IMG/VR virus record: IMGVR_UViG_3300029886_000150
From: a virus
Lineage: Duplodnaviria > Heunggongvirae > Uroviricota > Caudoviricetes
Direction: 5' to 3' (one strand)
DNA length: 33,017 nucleotides
Below are positions 1 through 9,947 of this stretch, in pieces. Under the pieces are notes generated by a model. That model did not search any database, was not told where the DNA came from, and saw only the letters and a program-made list of their open reading frames with translations. Positions within the stretch are counted from its first letter, which is position 1. Each line of letters starts with the position of its first letter. The translations under genes were made by a program, and so were the position numbers.

Positions 1-996
1 TTATGGACGCATTATGGACATTCCTGACACCGGGTTAAGAGTCACTGCATCTTGTAAGAAATCCGGTGCAAAGTGTGCGTAGGTCATAGTTTGCTGAATG
101 TTAGAATGACCCAGGATGCGCTGCAATGTGATTATGTTACCTCCATTCATTATAAAATGTGTGGCAAATGTATGCCTCAAAACATGCACTGCCTGTCCGT
201 CAGGTAAATCGGGTTTTACTTCCCTGAGAGCGTTGCGCACTTTGTAGTAACTGGCATTAAAAAGCCTGCCTGAATTTTTGGTCTTGATCCGTTTAATCAG
301 GTCCTGCGAAACGGGAATTGTCCTGCGCTTTCCGTTTTTAGTTTTCATAAACGTAACCATCTGGTTAATGATGTGTTCAGCTTTTAAATTAGACACTTCA
401 CTCCAGCGTCCACCAGTAGAAAGGCAGACCAGAGTCGCATTTAATTCATCACCATCGAGCATGGATAACAGCCGTGTAATCTCTTCACTGGACAAAAAAG
501 CCATTTCTGTAACAGCTTCACGTAATCGCTTAACCTCACGGAACGGGTTGTGAGAATGGTATTCACCGGCATCAATTAACTTGGTGAACATCCCGCTCAT
601 TATTGCCAGATGCCGATTTACGCTGGCTGGTTTTAGACCATCGTTCATCATTACAACGCGATAATCAGTTATCGTTTTCTTTGTTAGCTGGTCAGCTCTG
701 GACACTCCCATTTCTGCAAATTTGGCGATTATTGTCGTCAAACGCCCCCGTTCAATATCTCCACGCTCATGTGATTTTCCGTGATATATCCACCATCTGC
801 CTAACAACTCTGTAAGAGTTCGGCGGTCGGCTGGCTTCTCCAGCCACTCTTTGTTGTGGTAGTTAACCAGTACATGACGTTCGAATGCTTGAGCTTCACC
901 TTTAGTTTTAAATTTCCGCCTGATACGTTTTCCATCTGCACCCTGCGGTCTGACGTCCACTTCATAACGACCATCATCGAGCTTTTTAATAGACAT
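1..996 (-). CDS. int: Tyrosine site-specific integrase (P2 Int-like), 331 aa
   Basis: ORF track 1..996 minus; start codon ATG at 994-996. Conserved tyrosine-recombinase C-terminal motifs (HVLRHTFATHF, LGHSNIQQTMTYAH). Position next to the C repressor at the prophage end. Confidence 0.9.
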   Translation of the reverse strand: MSIKKLDDGRYEVDVRPQGADGKRIRRKFKTKGEAQAFERHVLVNYHNKEWLEKPADRRTLTELLGRWWIYHGKSHERGDIERGRLTTIIAKFAEMGVSRADQLTKKTITDYRVVMMNDGLKPASVNRHLAIMSGMFTKLIDAGEYHSHNPFREVKRLREAVTEMAFLSSEEITRLLSMLDGDELNATLVCLSTGGRWSEVSNLKAEHIINQMVTFMKTKNGKRRTIPVSQDLIKRIKTKNSGRLFNASYYKVRNALREVKPDLPDGQAVHVLRHTFATHFIMNGGNIITLQRILGHSNIQQTMTYAHFAPDFLQDAVTLNPVSGMSIMRP

Positions 997-3587: not shown

Positions 3588-3859
3588 GTATTCGTATCGA
3601 AATTGGCGAACGTTATGTCGTTACCAGTGACAGCTTTCAGTTTATTCTCCACGAGAAAAAGAGAGCGGAAAGCGGTAAAAACGCCGGTCAGGAATGGCTG
3701 GCGGTGGTTGGTTATTACCCGAAATTAAGCCAGCTCGTTTCCGGCCTGATGCATCACGATATTCTGACCGGAAGCGCAAAGTCTTTTGCTGATTTAAACG
3801 CGCAGGTTGAGCAACTCAGCAAGCGTTGTTCAGAGGCTTTTGGCTCATATGGCCGTTAA
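3584..3859 (+). CDS. Hypothetical early protein, 91 aa
   Basis: ATG 3584 after GGAGAACGGC; ends at 3859, overlapping the A start. Confidence 0.6.
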   Translation: MSIRIEIGERYVVTSDSFQFILHEKKRAESGKNAGQEWLAVVGYYPKLSQLVSGLMHHDILTGSAKSFADLNAQVEQLSKRCSEAFGSYGR

Positions 3860-6134
3860 AGCCTCCGGGCGTTTTGTCCCTCCGTCAGCATTTGCCGCAG
3901 GCACCGGTAAGGCGTTTACCGGTGCTTATGCATGGAACGCGCCACGCGAGGCTGTCGGGCGCGAAAGACCCCTTACACGTGACGAGATGCGTCAGGTGCA
4001 AGGTGTTTTATCCACGATTAACCGCCTGCCTTACTTTTTGCGCTCGCTGTTTACTTCACGCTATGACTACATCCGGCGCAATAAAAGCCCGGTGCACGGG
4101 TTTTATTTCCTCACATCCACTTTTCAGCGTCGTTTATGGCCGCGCATTGAGCGCGTGAATCAGCGCCATGAAATGAACACCGACGCGTCGTTACTGTTTC
4201 TGGCAGAGCGTGACCACTATGCGCGCCTGCCGGGGATGAATGACAAGGAGCTGAAAAAGTTTGCCGCCCGTATCTCATCGCAGCTTTTCATGATGTATGA
4301 GGAACTCTGCGATGCATGGGTTGATGCACATGGCGAAAAAGAATCGCTGTTTACGGATGAGGCGCAGACTCACCTGTATGGTCATGTTGCTGGCGCTGCA
4401 CGTGCTTTCAATATTTCCCCGCTCTACTGGAAAAAATACCGTAAAGGACAGATAACCACGAGGCAGGCATATTCTGCCATTGCCCGTCTGTTTAACGATG
4501 AGTGGTGGACTCATCAGCTTAAAGGCCAGCGTATGCGCTGGCATGAGGCGTTACTGATTGCTGTCGGGGAGGTCAATAAAGACCGTTCTCCTTATGCCAG
4601 TAAACATGCCATTCGTGATGTGCGTGCACGCCGCCAGGCAAATCTGGAATTTCTTAAATCGTGTGACCTTGAAAACAGGGAAACCGGCGAGCGCATCGAC
4701 CTTATCAGTAAGGTGATGGGCAGTATTTCTAATCCTGAAATTCGCCGGATGGAGCTGATGAACACCATCGCCGGAATTGAGCGTTATGCCGCCGCAGAGG
4801 GTGATGTGGGGATGTTTATCACGCTGACCGCGCCGTCAAAGTATCACCCGACACGTCAGGTCGGAAAAGGCGAAAGTAAAACCGTCCAGCTAAATCACGG
4901 CTGGAATGATGAGGCATTTAATCCAAAGGATGCGCAGCGTTATCTCTGCCATATCTGGAGCCTGATGCGCACGGCATTCAAGGATAATGATTTACAGGTC
5001 TACGGTTTGCGTGTCGTCGAGCCACACCACGACGGAACGCCGCACTGGCATATGATGCTTTTTTGTAATCCACGCCAGCGTAACCAGATTATTGAAATCA
5101 TGCGTCGCTATGCGCTCAAAGAGGATGGCGACGAAAGAGGAGCCGCGCGAAACCGTTTTCAGGCAAAACACCTTAACCGGGGCGGTGCTGCGGGATATAT
5201 CGCGAAATACATCTCAAAAAACATCGACGGCTATGCACTGGATGGTCAGCTCGATAATGATACCGGTAGGCCGCTGAAAGACACAGCTGCGGCTGTTACC
5301 GCATGGGCGTCAACGTGGCGCATTCCGCAATTTAAAACGGTTGGTCTGCCGACAATGGGGGCTTACCGTGAATTACGCAAATTGCCTCGCGGCGTCAGCA
5401 TTGCTGATGAGTTTGACGAGCGCGTCGAGGCTGCACGCGCCGCCGCAGACAGTGGTGATTTTGCGTTGTATATCAGCGCGCAGGGTGGGGCAAATGTTCC
5501 GCGCGATTGTCAGACTGTCAGAGTCGCCCGTAGCCCGTCGGATGACGTTAACGAGTACGAGGAAGAAGTCGAGAGAGTGGTCGGCATTTACGCACCGCAT
5601 CTCGGCGCGCGTCATATTCATATCACCAGAACCACGGATTGGCGCATTGTGCCGAAAGTTCCGGTCGTTGAGCCTTTGACTTTAAAAAGCGGCATCGCCG
5701 CGCCTCGGAGTCCTGTCAATAACTGTGGAAAGCTCACTGGTGGTGATACTTCGTTACCGGCTCCCACGCCTTCTGAGCACGCCGCAGCAGTGCTTAATCT
5801 GGTTGATGACGGTGTTATCGAATGGAATGAACCGGAGGTCGTGAGGACGCTCAGGGGTGCATTAAAACACGGCCTGAAAACACCAAACCGTCAGCAAAGA
5901 AACGGAAGCCCGTTAAAATCACATGAAATAGCACCGTCGGCCAGGCTGACCCGGTCGGAACGATTGCAAATCACCCGTATCCGCGTTGACCTTGCTCAGA
6001 ATGGAATCTTGCCCCAGCGATGGGAGCTTGAGGCGCTGGCGCGTGGGGCAACCATAAATTATGACGGGAAACAATTCACGTATCTGGCTGCTGATGAGTG
6101 GCCGGGATTCTCAACAGTAATGGAGTGGACATGA
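3849..6134 (+). CDS. A: Rolling-circle replication initiator / nicking endonuclease A (P2 gpA-like), 761 aa
   Basis: ORF track 3807..6134 begins at TTG; first ATG at 3849 gives 761 aa, the P2 gpA length. Sequence resembles the gpA family as recalled; position after B and the early ORFs. Confidence 0.9.
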   Translation: MAVKASGRFVPPSAFAAGTGKAFTGAYAWNAPREAVGRERPLTRDEMRQVQGVLSTINRLPYFLRSLFTSRYDYIRRNKSPVHGFYFLTSTFQRRLWPRIERVNQRHEMNTDASLLFLAERDHYARLPGMNDKELKKFAARISSQLFMMYEELCDAWVDAHGEKESLFTDEAQTHLYGHVAGAARAFNISPLYWKKYRKGQITTRQAYSAIARLFNDEWWTHQLKGQRMRWHEALLIAVGEVNKDRSPYASKHAIRDVRARRQANLEFLKSCDLENRETGERIDLISKVMGSISNPEIRRMELMNTIAGIERYAAAEGDVGMFITLTAPSKYHPTRQVGKGESKTVQLNHGWNDEAFNPKDAQRYLCHIWSLMRTAFKDNDLQVYGLRVVEPHHDGTPHWHMMLFCNPRQRNQIIEIMRRYALKEDGDERGAARNRFQAKHLNRGGAAGYIAKYISKNIDGYALDGQLDNDTGRPLKDTAAAVTAWASTWRIPQFKTVGLPTMGAYRELRKLPRGVSIADEFDERVEAARAAADSGDFALYISAQGGANVPRDCQTVRVARSPSDDVNEYEEEVERVVGIYAPHLGARHIHITRTTDWRIVPKVPVVEPLTLKSGIAAPRSPVNNCGKLTGGDTSLPAPTPSEHAAAVLNLVDDGVIEWNEPEVVRTLRGALKHGLKTPNRQQRNGSPLKSHEIAPSARLTRSERLQITRIRVDLAQNGILPQRWELEALARGATINYDGKQFTYLAADEWPGFSTVMEWT

Positions 6135-6586
6135 TGGCAAAAATTCACGAGGTAAAGCTGCACGCAAAATATTTTGACCTTGTGCTGGAAGGAAAGAAAC
6201 GCGCAGAGTTTCGGAAAAATGACCGTAATTATGAGCGCGGGGACACGTTGATTTTGCATGAATGGGTGCAGGGTGTGTATACGGGGCGAAAGGTTGAAGC
6301 CCGGATAACAGATGTTACTGACCTGTCAGACTGGCTGGCAGATTATGTCTTGCTAAGTATTGAGCTGCTTAATACAGGCGCATATGAGATTGTGAACTGG
6401 AAAGAACTTAGTGAGCGTGGTCTGGTATTCAGAATTAATCATGAAATTATGCATCAGCTCGGCCTTGCTGTTATGTATGAACCAGAGACGGGGATGTCTG
6501 GCGGGGCAATGGTTGCCACGGATGGAGCATGGAACTATTCAGATGAACAGATGGAGCGTGCAAAGCAAAACGGGTGGCTTGGATAA
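6131..6586 (+). CDS. ASCH-like (DUF3850-like) domain protein, about 151 aa, first cargo gene
   Basis: ATG at 6131 overlapping the A stop (ATGA). N-terminal segment HEVKLHAKYFDLVLEGKKRAEFRKNDRNYERGDTLILHEW matches the ASCH/DUF3850 pattern as I recall it. Confidence 0.6.
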   Translation: MMAKIHEVKLHAKYFDLVLEGKKRAEFRKNDRNYERGDTLILHEWVQGVYTGRKVEARITDVTDLSDWLADYVLLSIELLNTGAYEIVNWKELSERGLVFRINHEIMHQLGLAVMYEPETGMSGGAMVATDGAWNYSDEQMERAKQNGWLG

Positions 6587-6792
6587 TGCACAGAATACCA
6601 GGCGAGATACCGCGACATAACACTAAAAATATCAAGCTGATGGCTATTGTTCACCGTCTACAGCAGATTATGGTCAACGAAAATCTGACGCCTGACGAGC
6701 TGGTCGGGTGTGCCGAAATAGTCCGGGATAATTACGGGCGGCTTAACTATATCGGTCAGTCCAGCGTTGCGCCACCACTACGCAGACGATAG
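6586..6792 (+). CDS. Small hypothetical protein, 68 aa
   Basis: ATG 6586 overlaps the upstream stop (TAATG); ORF ends at TAG 6790-6792, followed immediately by the hairpin at 6797-6835. No recognisable motif. Confidence 0.4.
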   Translation: MHRIPGEIPRHNTKNIKLMAIVHRLQQIMVNENLTPDELVGCAEIVRDNYGRLNYIGQSSVAPPLRRR

Positions 6793-6796
6793 AGAA

Positions 6797-6835
6797 CGCC
6801 GCCAGCCGTGAAACTTGTTTTCAGGGCTGGCGGCG
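6797..6835 (+). terminator. Stem-loop element, copy 1 (11-bp GC-rich stem, 17-nt loop containing GAAACTTGTTTTCAG), followed by GTTGAACAAC
   Basis: CGCCGCCAGCC (6797-6807) pairs with GGCTGGCGGCG (6825-6835); sits 5 nt after the stop of the 68-aa ORF. No U-tract follows, so it is not a canonical intrinsic terminator. Confidence 0.5.
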
Positions 6836-7016
6836 TTGAACAACGAGCGTAGCGAGGCGTTAGTTGACAGTCATATTTTTACTGCGTAGGTGCTGGTTTT
6901 TGACGGTTGAAAGGAGTTAGGTTGGAGAGCTAACAACTTACAAATATTCAAAAGTGAGCATCCTGTTGCTAACATGAGGTCGATTTTTTTATGTGGATGA
7001 TGCAAAAAGGATAGCT

Positions 7017-7748
7017 ATGGATACTGTAATCGCTTTTCTATCACTCGCTTTTTTCGTTGCTTTTTTCATCGGGTTAATCAAGCCATCACTGGTGCGGATG
7101 CCAAACCGTAAACGTGCAAGTGCGGTTTATCTCGGAGGTGGTTTTGCATTGAGCATAATTGGTTCAATACTCTACCCAACAGAAAAAAGCCAGCCAGTTG
7201 CTAAAACTGAAACATCAACCGTAGCAGAACACCAAACCCAAAAAACATTCGAATATAGTGAAAAAACACTCAAGGAATATCGGAACGAGCCAAAGAAGAC
7301 TCGACACGATATTGTGAATAGTTACATTGACTTTAAGAAAGTGCCTGTCACCGCATCAGATGTATTTTACGCCTGCATGAGTGAGTATACATTTACCAAA
7401 GATGATGAGTTGAAACTCGGTGATGTTCTTGGGTGGTGCTTTAATGATTATGAAAATGACCCGAATTCATTAAACAATAAAATCAATCTTGATACATTTC
7501 AGAGTAATTTTAGTGGTTGGGATGGTTCTTATCGGCCATTGGAAAAACTAATTAAAGATAATATGAACGATGATTCATCTTATAAACATGTGTCAACGCT
7601 ATATCATTTGGTTTTGAATAAAGACCCGCATGCCATTGTGAAAACCACGTTTCGCGGAACTAATGCTTATGGCGGGGTGGTTAAACAGACGATCTCGGCG
7701 CGTGTTGATGTGCGAACGGGTGAAGTTGTTTCGATACTCGATAACTAA
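7017..7748 (+). CDS. Cargo protein with two predicted N-terminal transmembrane helices and a C-terminal soluble domain of about 180 aa; function unknown
   Basis: ORF track 6993..7748 starts at GTG; ATG 7017 has a better ribosome-binding site (AGGA, 5-nt spacer). Hydrophobic segments VIAFLSLAFFVAFFIGLI and AVYLGGGFALSIIGSILY. AT-rich coding sequence. Confidence 0.65.
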   Translation: MDTVIAFLSLAFFVAFFIGLIKPSLVRMPNRKRASAVYLGGGFALSIIGSILYPTEKSQPVAKTETSTVAEHQTQKTFEYSEKTLKEYRNEPKKTRHDIVNSYIDFKKVPVTASDVFYACMSEYTFTKDDELKLGDVLGWCFNDYENDPNSLNNKINLDTFQSNFSGWDGSYRPLEKLIKDNMNDDSSYKHVSTLYHLVLNKDPHAIVKTTFRGTNAYGGVVKQTISARVDVRTGEVVSILDN

Positions 7749-7765
7749 ACCAGTAAAGTGATAAA

Positions 7766-7802
7766 CGCCGTCAGTACTGAAACTTGTTTCAGGCTGACGG
7801 TG
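7766..7802 (+). terminator. Stem-loop element, copy 2 (CGCCGTCAG / CTGACGGTG stem around CTGAAACTTGTTTCAG), followed by GTTGAACGAC
   Basis: Same loop core and same downstream GTTGAAC motif as copy 1, with different but still complementary stem bases; sits 18 nt after the 2-TM gene stop. Confidence 0.5.
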
Positions 7803-7848
7803 TTGAACGACATTAACAGTGATAAATTAGTAGCGGAACACAATAATC

Positions 7849-7877
7849 TTGTTTTGTGCATGAAAAGCATGTATTGT
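7849..7877 (+). promoter_or_regulatory. Candidate sigma70-type promoter for the 224-aa cargo gene (TTGTTT, 17-nt spacer, TATTGT)
   Basis: Hexamers with a 17-nt spacer about 30 nt upstream of ATG 7908, in an AT-rich intergenic region after the copy-2 hairpin. Confidence 0.3.
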
Positions 7878-7907
7878 GCGTAAAACGTCTATTTTACGAG
7901 GTGCGTT

Positions 7908-8582
7908 ATGGTTTTTCGTGCAGATGAAAGTGCTCAACGTGGATTTGAGAAAGCATGCAGTGTATTGATTACAAATGATATCGTTGGTAATGAGAGAGCT
8001 TTTGCTCGTCAAAAACTGGAACAAATTATTGATGAATGTGGTTCCGTAGTTGATGGGTATCCAGGTTGGCATCCTTTTTTGATGGAAACTGATTCAGATA
8101 GTTTTTCTCCAATGATTCCTGATAATTGCTCAAGTTATCGACTGCTTGATCATTCTGTATATCTGGTAAATGGAATCATAACGTGTCCTTATAGTCATGC
8201 AGTTGGCCAGTTAGTTAGCAATATTCAAGCGATACGAAACAAGCATGATTTAGCTGATATAACGATAGAAGAAATTAAAGGCGTGACTTTCTACAATTCT
8301 CATACAACACCTATGTTAATTAGATGCCGTTGGAAAACTGGACTGGAAGAAGATGGCACAATCCCCCTGCGTACAGCTTTGGGGTTGATGCTTGAAAGAG
8401 AATTGCCGGGATGGAGATGGGGACGATTTAATCAGAGTTGGGAAAGCATGAGAGGGGATATTTTGGGTTATCCTCATGGCGCTAGGTCTTCTTTATTTGT
8501 CAATCAGCAAACAGGTCAGCAGCTAAAAAACGTATGGAATCAACTTATAAAAGCTGGTTTATGGGGGGATGAATATAAATAA
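7908..8582 (+). CDS. Soluble cargo protein, 224 aa, function unknown
   Basis: ATG 7908 after GAGG; AT-rich; last gene before the cos region. No motif I can assign to a known family. Confidence 0.65.
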   Translation: MVFRADESAQRGFEKACSVLITNDIVGNERAFARQKLEQIIDECGSVVDGYPGWHPFLMETDSDSFSPMIPDNCSSYRLLDHSVYLVNGIITCPYSHAVGQLVSNIQAIRNKHDLADITIEEIKGVTFYNSHTTPMLIRCRWKTGLEEDGTIPLRTALGLMLERELPGWRWGRFNQSWESMRGDILGYPHGARSSLFVNQQTGQQLKNVWNQLIKAGLWGDEYK

Positions 8583-8723
8583 TCAGAATTATATTCCTGT
8601 GCATGTCTGTGACGCATTAATTTGCATGCGTTTTCCTCTACTGTTGCTTGTGAGAGCCGTCAGTGCCGGCGCGCTCTTGGAGTGTTCATGCAACTGCATT
8701 AAAACCGCCCCATGAAGCGGGCG

Positions 8724-8742
8724 GGCGAGGCGGGGAAAGCAC
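8724..8742. other. Cohesive-end (cos) site, 19-nt P2-type sequence GGCGAGGCGGGGAAAGCAC
   Basis: Exact match to the P2 19-nt cohesive end as I recall it, about 170 bp beyond the 3' end of Q, where cos lies in P2. Preceded by a GC hairpin CCGCCC..GGGCGG. Confidence 0.6.
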
Positions 8743-8885
8743 TGCGCGCTGGCGGTGGTGCTGATTTTATTTTTTCAGCGTCTGAGCGCGTCGTGATGGC
8801 GTTTAGATTGTTCGCCGGGGCCGTTGGTGTGTCTGCGGGGTGTTTTGTGCGGTGGTGAGCGTATGAGGGCGTGATGACGGGGTGT

Positions 8886-8909
8886 AAAAAAGCCGCCCGC
8901 AGGCGGCGA
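8886..8909 (-). terminator. Rho-independent terminator downstream of Q (minus strand)
   Basis: GCCGCC / GGCGGC stem (8893-8898, 8904-8909) followed on the minus strand by a 6-U tract (plus-strand A-run 8886-8891), 3 nt past the Q stop. Confidence 0.7.
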
Positions 8910-8912
8910 TGT

Positions 8913-9947
8913 TCAGCCGTTGTCAGTGTCCAGTGAGTAGTTTTTAAAGCGGATGACTTCCTGGCCGAGCCAGCCGTTTATCTCGCGGATCCTGTCCTGT
9001 AGCGGGATAAGCTCATTGCGGACAAAGACCTTTGCCACTTTCTCAATATCGCCCAGCGACCCGACGTTCTCCGGCTTGCCGCCCATCAACTGAAAGGGGA
9101 TGCGGTGCGCGTCCAGCAGGTCAGCGGCGCTGGCTTTTTTGATATTAAAAAAATCGTCCTTCGTTGCCACTTCACTGAGCGGGATAATTTTAATGCCGTC
9201 GGCTTTCCCCTGTGGGGCATAGAGAAACAGGTTTTTAAAGTTGTTGCGGCCTTTCGACTTCACCATGTTTTCGCGGAGCATTTCGATATCGTTGCGATCC
9301 TGCACGGCATCGGTGACGTACATGATGTATCCGGCATGTGCGCCGTTTTCGTAATACTTGCGGCGGAACAGCGTGGCTGATTCATTCAGCCAGGCAGAGT
9401 TAAGGGCGCTGAGATATTCCGGCAGGCCGTACAGCTCCTGATTGATATCCGGCTCCAGCAGGTGAAACACGGAGCCGGGCGTGAAAGGTGTTGGCTCGTT
9501 GAAGGACGGCACCCACCAGTAAATATCTTCTTCCACACCACGGCGGGTATATTTTGCCGGTGAGGTTTCCAGTCTGATGACCTTACCGGTGGTGCTGTAA
9601 CGCTTTTCCAGAAACGCATTACCGAACACCAGAAAATCCAGCACAAAGCGGCTGAAATCCTGCTGGGAAAGCCACGGATGCGGGATAAATGTCGAGGCCA
9701 GAATATTACGTTTGACGTAAATCGGGGAGCTGTGATGCACGGCAGCACGCAGGCTTTTTGCCAGACCGGTAAAGCTGACCGGTGGCTCATACCATCTGCC
9801 GTTACTGATGCACTCGACGTAATCCAGAATGTCACGGCGATCGAGTACCGGCACCGGCTCACCAAAGGTGAATGCCTCCATTTTCGGGGCGCTGGCGGTC
9901 ATTGTTTTTGCCGCTGGTCGCGGTGTTTTCCCTTTTTTCTTGCTCAT
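8913..9947 (-). CDS. Q: Portal protein (P2 gpQ-like), 344 aa
   Basis: ORF 8913..9947 minus; length equals P2 gpQ and the sequence resembles it as recalled; overlaps the P stop. Confidence 0.9.
   Translation of the reverse strand: MSKKKGKTPRPAAKTMTASAPKMEAFTFGEPVPVLDRRDILDYVECISNGRWYEPPVSFTGLAKSLRAAVHHSSPIYVKRNILASTFIPHPWLSQQDFSRFVLDFLVFGNAFLEKRYSTTGKVIRLETSPAKYTRRGVEEDIYWWVPSFNEPTPFTPGSVFHLLEPDINQELYGLPEYLSALNSAWLNESATLFRRKYYENGAHAGYIMYVTDAVQDRNDIEMLRENMVKSKGRNNFKNLFLYAPQGKADGIKIIPLSEVATKDDFFNIKKASAADLLDAHRIPFQLMGGKPENVGSLGDIEKVAKVFVRNELIPLQDRIREINGWLGQEVIRFKNYSLDTDNG

Follow-up and report, generated by a model that had tools for sequence, protein, structure and literature searches.

Phages and prophages encode small inner-membrane proteins, such as HK97 gp15, T4 Imm, and P22 SieA, that block DNA entry of related phages. 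Two other phage-excluding proteins are encoded by P2, of which Tin acts inside the cell against T-even phages and Old acts against lambda. The genes tin and old are P2's own cargo in the interval between gpA and gpQ, which is an accessory and defense hotspot of P2-like phages (Rousset et al., 2022, PMC9122126). Among the entries catalogued at this hotspot is "system #12," a protein whose only annotation is "2 TM" and which occurs 210 times among the P2-like prophages of E. coli (Rousset et al., 2022, PMC9122126, Table S5B). In phage 186, the GenBank record (U32222) states for Orf97 that "expression from plasmid blocks 186 infection" and lists orf97 in second place in the p95 operon, which LexA represses and which comprises p95, tum, the partial terminator t95a, orf97, and the terminator t95b; the source cited for 186 Orf97, as referenced in PMC5322425, is Brumby et al. 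(1996, Virology 219:105).

We analyzed a stretch of 33,017 nucleotides (the window) from a P2-type (Peduovirus) prophage, in which the gpA–gpQ interval carries an orf97 homolog between two copies of a stem-loop (Table 1). Judged by sequence, the product belongs to the Orf97 family of phage 186: it shares 78.6% identity with 186 Orf97 (AAC34191.1) at 100% coverage (tblastn, E 2e-120), the two proteins are both 243 amino acids long, and phrog_3403 covers residues 1–243 of 243 (E 1.3e-145). The window protein corresponds to system #12 of the P2 hotspot, which was catalogued without a name or a link to 186 Orf97. The family is already known, from the exclusion phenotype of 1996 and the catalogue entry of 2022, and the gene is ordinary for its locus. 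What our analysis does is to join three records, namely the 1996 phenotype of 186, the unnamed hotspot entry, and many "hypothetical protein" annotations in Enterobacterales, into a single-gene candidate for exclusion between P2-like phages. It adds a predicted compartment and fold for the protein, the placement of its domain in a large family that has no curated model, the loss of SOS coupling in the P2-type copies, and a conserved, unannotated 70-nt hairpin element at the left edge of the hotspot and at the joints of small-gene modules, which bears on how defense cassettes are swapped. None of these findings overturns current ideas.

Copies with 93–94% identity to the window protein are present in phages S164, P24A7b, P22H4, and 9W, and more remote copies in phages of Salmonella, Yersinia, Klebsiella, Erwinia, Vibrio, Aeromonas, and Helicobacter. 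Apart from two close phage records that already name Orf97, the database names for the protein are "hypothetical protein." The Peduovirus-type gene occurs in 84 of 5426 complete E. coli genomes and is chromosomal in every case. In all 52 surveyed loci with orf97, the gene lies between replication gene A and cos/gpQ, as it does in the window. Searches of Pfam, NCBIfam, and PADLOC-DB v2 (0 PADLOC families at E up to 1) gave no family match, and a search of PDB sequences with the family profile gave no relative. Orf97-family sequences are also absent from the table of cloned systems of Rousset et al. (PMC9122126), from which we infer that system #12 was not tested there. The "2TM + 1TM + TIR" system AC1 of the same authors was considered as a system that might contain an Orf97 homolog, and the idea was dropped, as Orf97 motifs are absent from the cloned-systems table that lists AC1.

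Table 1. Features of the window around the orf97-family gene, with the predicted domain map of its product (given as residue numbers)
Feature	Position	Strand	Evidence or remark
gpA replication initiator gene	3807–6134	+	left limit of the hotspot by its published definition
ASCH/DUF3850 + DUF7415 gene (phrog_1812)	6131–6586	+	4-nt overlap with the end of gpA
orf92-like small gene (phrog_11386)	6574–6792	+	conserved gene 5′ of hairpin copy 1
Hairpin copy 1 (HP1), 18-bp GC-rich stem-loop	6795–6837	+	inverted repeat, RNA fold, nhmmer
3′ box of the hairpin element (GAACAACGAGCGTAGCGAGGCGTTAG)	6838–6862	+	at least 90% column conservation; copy listing
Decayed homolog of the t95a partial terminator	6951–7003	+	aligned locally to the sequence 5′ of orf97 in 186
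Shine-Dalgarno sequence AAGGA	7007–7011	+	5 nt before the ATG
orf97-family gene, 243 aa	7017–7748	+	ORF, phrog_3403, hydropathy, alignment, AlphaFold2, dN/dS
TM1 (predicted)	residues 3–21		
Cytoplasmic basic loop (predicted)	residues 22–33		
TM2 (predicted)	residues 34–54		
Variable disordered linker (predicted)	residues 55–77		
HdeA-like helical subdomain (predicted)	residues ~78–155		
Helix + 4-strand sheet subdomain (predicted)	residues ~156–243		
Hairpin copy 2 (HP2), degenerate	7764–7804	+	inverted repeat, fold, nhmmer
Orphan ORF, 224 aa	7908–8582	+	same variable region as the orf97-family gene
gpQ portal gene	8913–9947	-	right border of the hotspot

The orf97-family gene has 243 codons, from an ATG start to a TAA stop. 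At 74.5% nucleotide identity to 186 orf97, its dN/dS is ~0.05, which shows that it is protein-coding and under strong purifying selection. The preliminary description had credited the ATG with a good ribosome-binding site, and this arrangement of ATG and Shine-Dalgarno sequence is kept in phage 186 and 52 related loci, with AAAGGAAAATCATG as the equivalent Shine-Dalgarno sequence in the 186-type loci. Some public gene calls (e.g., the cluster representative P0001, 251 aa) start at an upstream GTG at 6993. The conserved Shine-Dalgarno sequence and the alignment with 186 lead us to favor the ATG as the probable start.

Among the neighbors, the orf92-like gene with its flank is 92.6% identical in nucleotide sequence to Wphi gp92. 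In some related loci, a tblastn match to the ASCH gene is placed before gpA, not behind it. The 224-aa ORF downstream of HP2 has 39% GC, belongs to a 90% cluster of n = 6, and was seen in 1 of the 125 loci surveyed; Pfam, PADLOC, PHROG, and NCBIfam returned 0 matches. It is orphan hotspot cargo and no consistent partner of orf97. Beyond it follow the cos-proximal region and then gpQ and gpP, the portal and terminase genes, on the minus strand.

How does the window gene compare with its 186 counterpart? The two are alike in their layout of two transmembrane (TM) segments followed by a C-terminal domain, in their start context, in their place between gene A and cos, and in the hairpin element that lies 3′ of them. 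However, whereas 186 orf97 stands second in the LexA-controlled p95 operon, behind tum and t95a, the window gene has orf92 and a hairpin copy ahead of it and a P2-type backbone around it. No tum was found in the window by tblastn, and no match to a LexA box with 2 or fewer mismatches was found near the gene. The 60 nt before the ATG align with the t95a region of 186; the T-run is still there, but the left arm of the stem has been deleted. Of the components of the 186 SOS operon, the p95/LexA box and tum are therefore absent from the window, and t95a is represented by homologous sequence without its left arm. When the 180 nt upstream were searched for remains of the p95 promoter, the LexA box, or the start of tum, only the 60 nt proximal to t95a aligned convincingly, and the gap-ridden remainder of the alignment was rejected. 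The 52 orf97 loci fall into two upstream classes: all Peduovirus-type copies resemble the window, and all 186-type copies have an intact t95a.

The decayed t95a indicates that the orf97 copies of the window and other P2-type phages derive from a 186-type tum-t95a-orf97 SOS operon. In the simplest history, such an operon would have donated its orf97 segment to a P2-type backbone, at a site behind orf92, and tum and SOS control would have been lost. A promoter scan between HP1 and the ATG called no promoter-like site. Since no promoter was called and the LexA-controlled promoter of 186 is absent, any expression of the window gene in a lysogen is hypothetical, and read-through from the early lytic operon may be the sole source of its transcript.

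The preliminary description had read the protein as two N-terminal hydrophobic helices followed by a region with no assignable motif. Kyte-Doolittle hydropathy in 19-residue windows bears out the helices, at residues 3–21 (mean up to 2.67) and 34–54 (mean up to 1.68), and the empty Pfam, NCBIfam, and PADLOC searches agree with the second point. The loop between the two segments, KPSLVRMPNRKRAS, has a net charge of +5, from which the positive-inside rule predicts that the N terminus is outside, the loop inside, and the C terminus outside. Two cysteines of the HdeA-like subdomain, C120 and C141, are invariant in 30 diverse homologs, down to 52% identity. An exhaustive profile search identified 2842 cluster representatives at 50% identity, in many of which the similarity is limited to the final ~85 residues. 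For the 149 best of the 2842 relatives, the C-terminal domain nearly always follows an export signal, which may be a GLIKP 2-TM module, a cytoplasmic zinc ribbon with one TM segment, a lipobox, or a signal anchor. From the charge distribution, the invariant cysteines, and the export signals of the relatives, the C-terminal domain of the window protein is predicted to be periplasmic. The description of this domain as unassigned therefore holds in that it belongs to no curated family, but not beyond that, since the family was described in 1996 and the domain now has a predicted compartment. Scans of ten longer relatives found no Pfam domain over the region corresponding to the Orf97 C terminus in any of them.

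The N-terminal 2-TM module (7017–7181 of the window, residues 1–55; motif GL(I/F)KP..V) is conserved in its own right. It recurs with C-terminal parts that share only the last sheet subdomain or are wholly different (P0123, P0125, P0141, P0208–P0214, and P0253), one example being P0253, in which an SxtJ-like region lies behind the module. Two further families, phrog_28655 and phrog_23546, match residues 1–65 only.

A fold search of the C-terminal region, as the preliminary description had proposed, was carried out on a confident AlphaFold2 model. The pLDDT is above 90 at residues 80–243, and a model of the domain alone has a pLDDT of 92.5 and a pTM of 0.80; residues 55–77 are disordered and variable in sequence. 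In the model, the domain is predicted to combine an HdeA/HdeB-like helical subdomain with a cystatin/NTF2/VirB8-like sheet. Identity to 186 Orf97 is 45% in the linker and 77–88% in the domains, with the sheet subdomain the highest at 88%. The top-ranking structural matches are to binding domains of the chaperone, immunity, or scaffold type. The helical subdomain resembles HdeA/HdeB, YmgD, and the type VI immunity proteins Rap1a and Tai4, which are periplasmic, helical, and disulfide-bonded, at 6–18% identity, a resemblance of fold only; the modeled helical fold agrees with HdeA/HdeB, but the sequence falls outside the Pfam HdeA family. A fold search of BFVD matched only uncharacterized or "lipoprotein" phage proteins. 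The modeled fold is of an extracytoplasmic binding type, from which nothing certain follows about the target.

We consider it probable, with moderate confidence, that the window gene encodes an inner-membrane-tethered superinfection-exclusion protein that acts at an envelope step. Homology, the topology argument, fold, and locus come from our analysis; the phenotype comes from the annotation of the 186 homolog, a single GenBank note for a 79%-identical protein. Like known exclusion proteins, the product is prophage-encoded and predicted to lie in the envelope, with its active part facing the periplasm or membrane. In HK97 gp15 the bulk of the protein is likewise on the periplasmic side, where we predict that of the window protein to be, although neither HK97 gp15, T4 Imm, nor P22 SieA was matched in sequence or fold in the Pfam, PADLOC, PDB, or BFVD searches of the window protein. 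The P2 genes tin and old share the locus and the general phage-excluding role of the window gene, but their products are unrelated, non-membrane proteins.

If this reading is correct, the two helices would insert in the inner membrane with the N terminus out, the basic loop in the cytoplasm, and the C terminus out, and a flexible linker of ~23 residues would tether the 165-residue domain, probably disulfide-bonded, in the periplasm. There, the domain might bind an incoming tail or ejection component, or a host envelope factor that this component uses. The infecting genome would in this way be kept from crossing the envelope, and the cell would survive. The phages excluded would most likely be P2/186-like, and possibly others as well. 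Within this scheme, we infer the step that is blocked, the target, and whether the window copy is expressed in a lysogen.

The preliminary description had suggested that the protein is an abortive-infection or superinfection-exclusion effector. The locus is the P2 defense hotspot. Homology to 186 Orf97, with its annotation, supports exclusion in the broad sense without settling the choice between abortive infection and exclusion proper. For abortive infection, the 2-TM module would have to form or trigger a membrane lesion on infection, such that the cell dies before progeny are made. A small 2-TM protein in a defense hotspot where membrane effectors are common would suit such a role, as would the conservation of the GLIKP 2-TM module by itself and its occurrence with other C-terminal regions. 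However, no PADLOC model matches the protein, no sensor or partner gene is consistently adjacent in the surveyed loci, and the part conserved most strongly is the large periplasmic domain, above all its sheet subdomain. Moreover, the domain also occurs in lipoproteins and signal-peptide proteins that lack the 2-TM module, so that the module looks like an anchor rather than an effector. Together, these observations make death by membrane lesion very improbable. We assign a similarly small likelihood to the possibility that the periplasmic domain disturbs assembly of the lipopolysaccharide (LPS) core, or another envelope process, and that P2/186-type phages consequently adsorb poorly. An active domain predicted to face the periplasm would be well placed for this, "blocks infection" could equally describe an adsorption defect, and enzymes occur among NTF2-like folds. 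Yet neither a catalytic family nor a catalytic motif turned up in searches of Pfam, PDB sequences, and NCBIfam, the closest folds belong to the binding domains named above, and a flexible tether suits capture of a partner more than an enzymatic step embedded in the membrane.

It is also conceivable that the protein is a helper of induction or the lytic cycle, made only after induction (by SOS in 186 and by early-operon read-through in the window), which might stop secondary infection of the induced cell or condition the envelope before lysis. In 186, orf97 does share its LexA-repressed operon with the antirepressor gene tum, and tum is the top-expressed prophage transcript of Salmonella prophage BTP5 under some stress conditions. 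In the window, no promoter of its own was detected for the gene, and HP1 has no U-tract that would stop read-through. The main time of its production may therefore be lytic development, not the resting state of the lysogen. This alternative differs from exclusion at the envelope more in timing than in mechanism, however, and exclusion would remain the activity. Since P2-type phages that have lost tum and the LexA box still carry the gene, its value appears to be independent of SOS coupling, and we regard a role confined to induction as highly unlikely.

The two stem-loops that flank the gene proved to be part of a larger pattern. HP1 is an inverted repeat with 19-nt arms that are 95% complementary (RNA MFE -35.5 kcal/mol, z -6.3; nhmmer score 77.8), and HP2 folds with an RNA MFE of -25.9 kcal/mol (z -4.8) and has an 18-bp stem, as does HP1. 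The core that they have in common, TGAAACTTGTTT..CAGG, occurs twice in the window against 0.14 occurrences expected by chance. These values uphold the observation, made in the preliminary description, of two related stem-loops around the gene. Compared with HP1, HP2 carries one compensatory change, from C-G to U-A (pair 16–44 UA), and it has kept the stem-loop and GTTGAAC but lost the 3′ box, GAGGCGTTAG. The whole element, of ~70 nt, consists of the 18-bp stem-loop followed by GAACAACGAGC...GCGAGGCGTTAG; its copies extend over 6793–6862 and 7762–7812 of the window and 4237–4308 of locus L001, with further copies in loci L005–L124.

We scanned a collection with a stem-seeded pattern in which the sequence of the 3′ arm was fixed, which gave 120 loci, and searched with an nhmmer profile of the element built from four copies. 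By nhmmer, the element is present in 125 of 125 loci, as a single copy in most and as two copies on the same strand in 15. Among 136 copies surveyed, it starts 6–20 nt past the end of orf92 (62 copies), orf97 (35), or tum (19). The architectures of the 125 loci include gpA-tum-orf97-HP, gpA-tum-HP, gpA-tum-HP-orf92-HP, gpA-ASCH-orf92-HP-orf97, and gpA-ASCH-orf92-HP-orf97-HP, the last being that of the window. Where copies are paired, they are spaced by ~975 nt around an orf97 cassette or ~405 nt around an orf92 cassette. The suggestion that the gene is an independent cassette thus gains support, as the element directly follows tum, orf92, or orf97 in the 125 loci and both orf97 and orf92 are seen bracketed by it. 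The hairpins are indeed related, but rather than forming a local pair they represent a single conserved 70-nt element that is widespread.

The loci resemble one another as far as GCGTTAG, immediately beyond which the sequence is wholly different, and the distance from the end of the element to gpQ varies from 410 to 4109 nt. Since similarity ends at the element and the length from there to gpQ is variable, the element is the left edge of the variable hotspot. In the collections searched, it is confined to P2/186-like phages of Enterobacterales, and it is unannotated in 64 phage records, which by name are P2/186-like phages of Escherichia, Salmonella, Yersinia, Klebsiella, and Erwinia. Rfam covariance models gave 0 matches at E up to 1 in 6000–9200 of the window, and neither of two papers on the hotspot makes mention of a hairpin or terminator at this locus.

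What might the element do? In 55 of 55 unique copies, the plus-strand fold is ~10 kcal/mol more stable than the minus-strand fold, because of G-U pairs, of which there are 2.5 on average. This asymmetry suggests that the element acts on the rightward transcript, or else on that one strand of the DNA. We also considered whether it terminates leftward hotspot genes on the minus strand, and rejected this because the minus-strand fold is weaker by this amount in every copy. The ~25 nt of unpaired flank are conserved at at least 90%. Covariation in the stem is weak, being limited and partly biased by the 3′ arm fixed in the scan pattern, and we claim no statistical covariation support.

Could the hairpins be ordinary intrinsic terminators, with the bracketing of the gene incidental? 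Every copy lies 6–20 nt after a stop codon, and the stems are long and GC-rich, as those of terminators are. However, there is no U-tract 3′ of the stem on the plus strand, where GAACAACG or GAACGACA (GUUGAAC) is found instead, and a terminator scan called neither HP1 nor HP2 on either strand. The terminator annotated in 186, t95b, is found ~25 nt past the element, and a plain terminator would not need the conserved ~25-nt flank. We therefore regard plain termination as unlikely. Most likely, the element works both as a 3′-end RNA stem-loop on the rightward transcript and as a homology joint for shuffling the tum, orf92, and orf97 modules. In being an imperfect palindrome just after stop codons, strand-asymmetric, and at the joints of single-gene modules, it is like REP elements, lambda sib, and integron attC. 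A transcription terminator reported at retron junctions may correspond to the element.

Type VI immunity proteins and T4 Spackle neutralize injected peptidoglycan hydrolases. A bolder pair of proposals, which we think quite unlikely to hold as a whole, is that the periplasmic domain of Orf97 represents a very large, uncurated family of exported proteins (the 2842 representatives, with no Pfam, NCBIfam, or PDB entry) that exclude phages by capturing an ejected tail component, much as those proteins do, and that the 70-nt element is a dedicated cassette joint or RNA-level regulator which, as a folded single strand, mobilizes or controls the tum, orf92, and orf97 modules rather than serving as a plain terminator.

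Other loci, too, depart from the common form of the element. At the corresponding place, phage P24A7b carries a hairpin that has diverged further; its arms are different yet complementary. In its record (L003), an annotated minus-strand "hypothetical protein" CDS at 2559–2858 lies across the element; this CDS is probably an erroneous gene call on conserved, non-coding sequence. In locus L047, the element between orf97 and orf92 lacks its loop and 3′ arm (AAACGCCGCCGGTG/TTGAAAAACGACTACCGCGAGGCGTTTG), such that orf97 lies directly ahead of orf92-HP, and this loss looks like a deletion across the palindrome.
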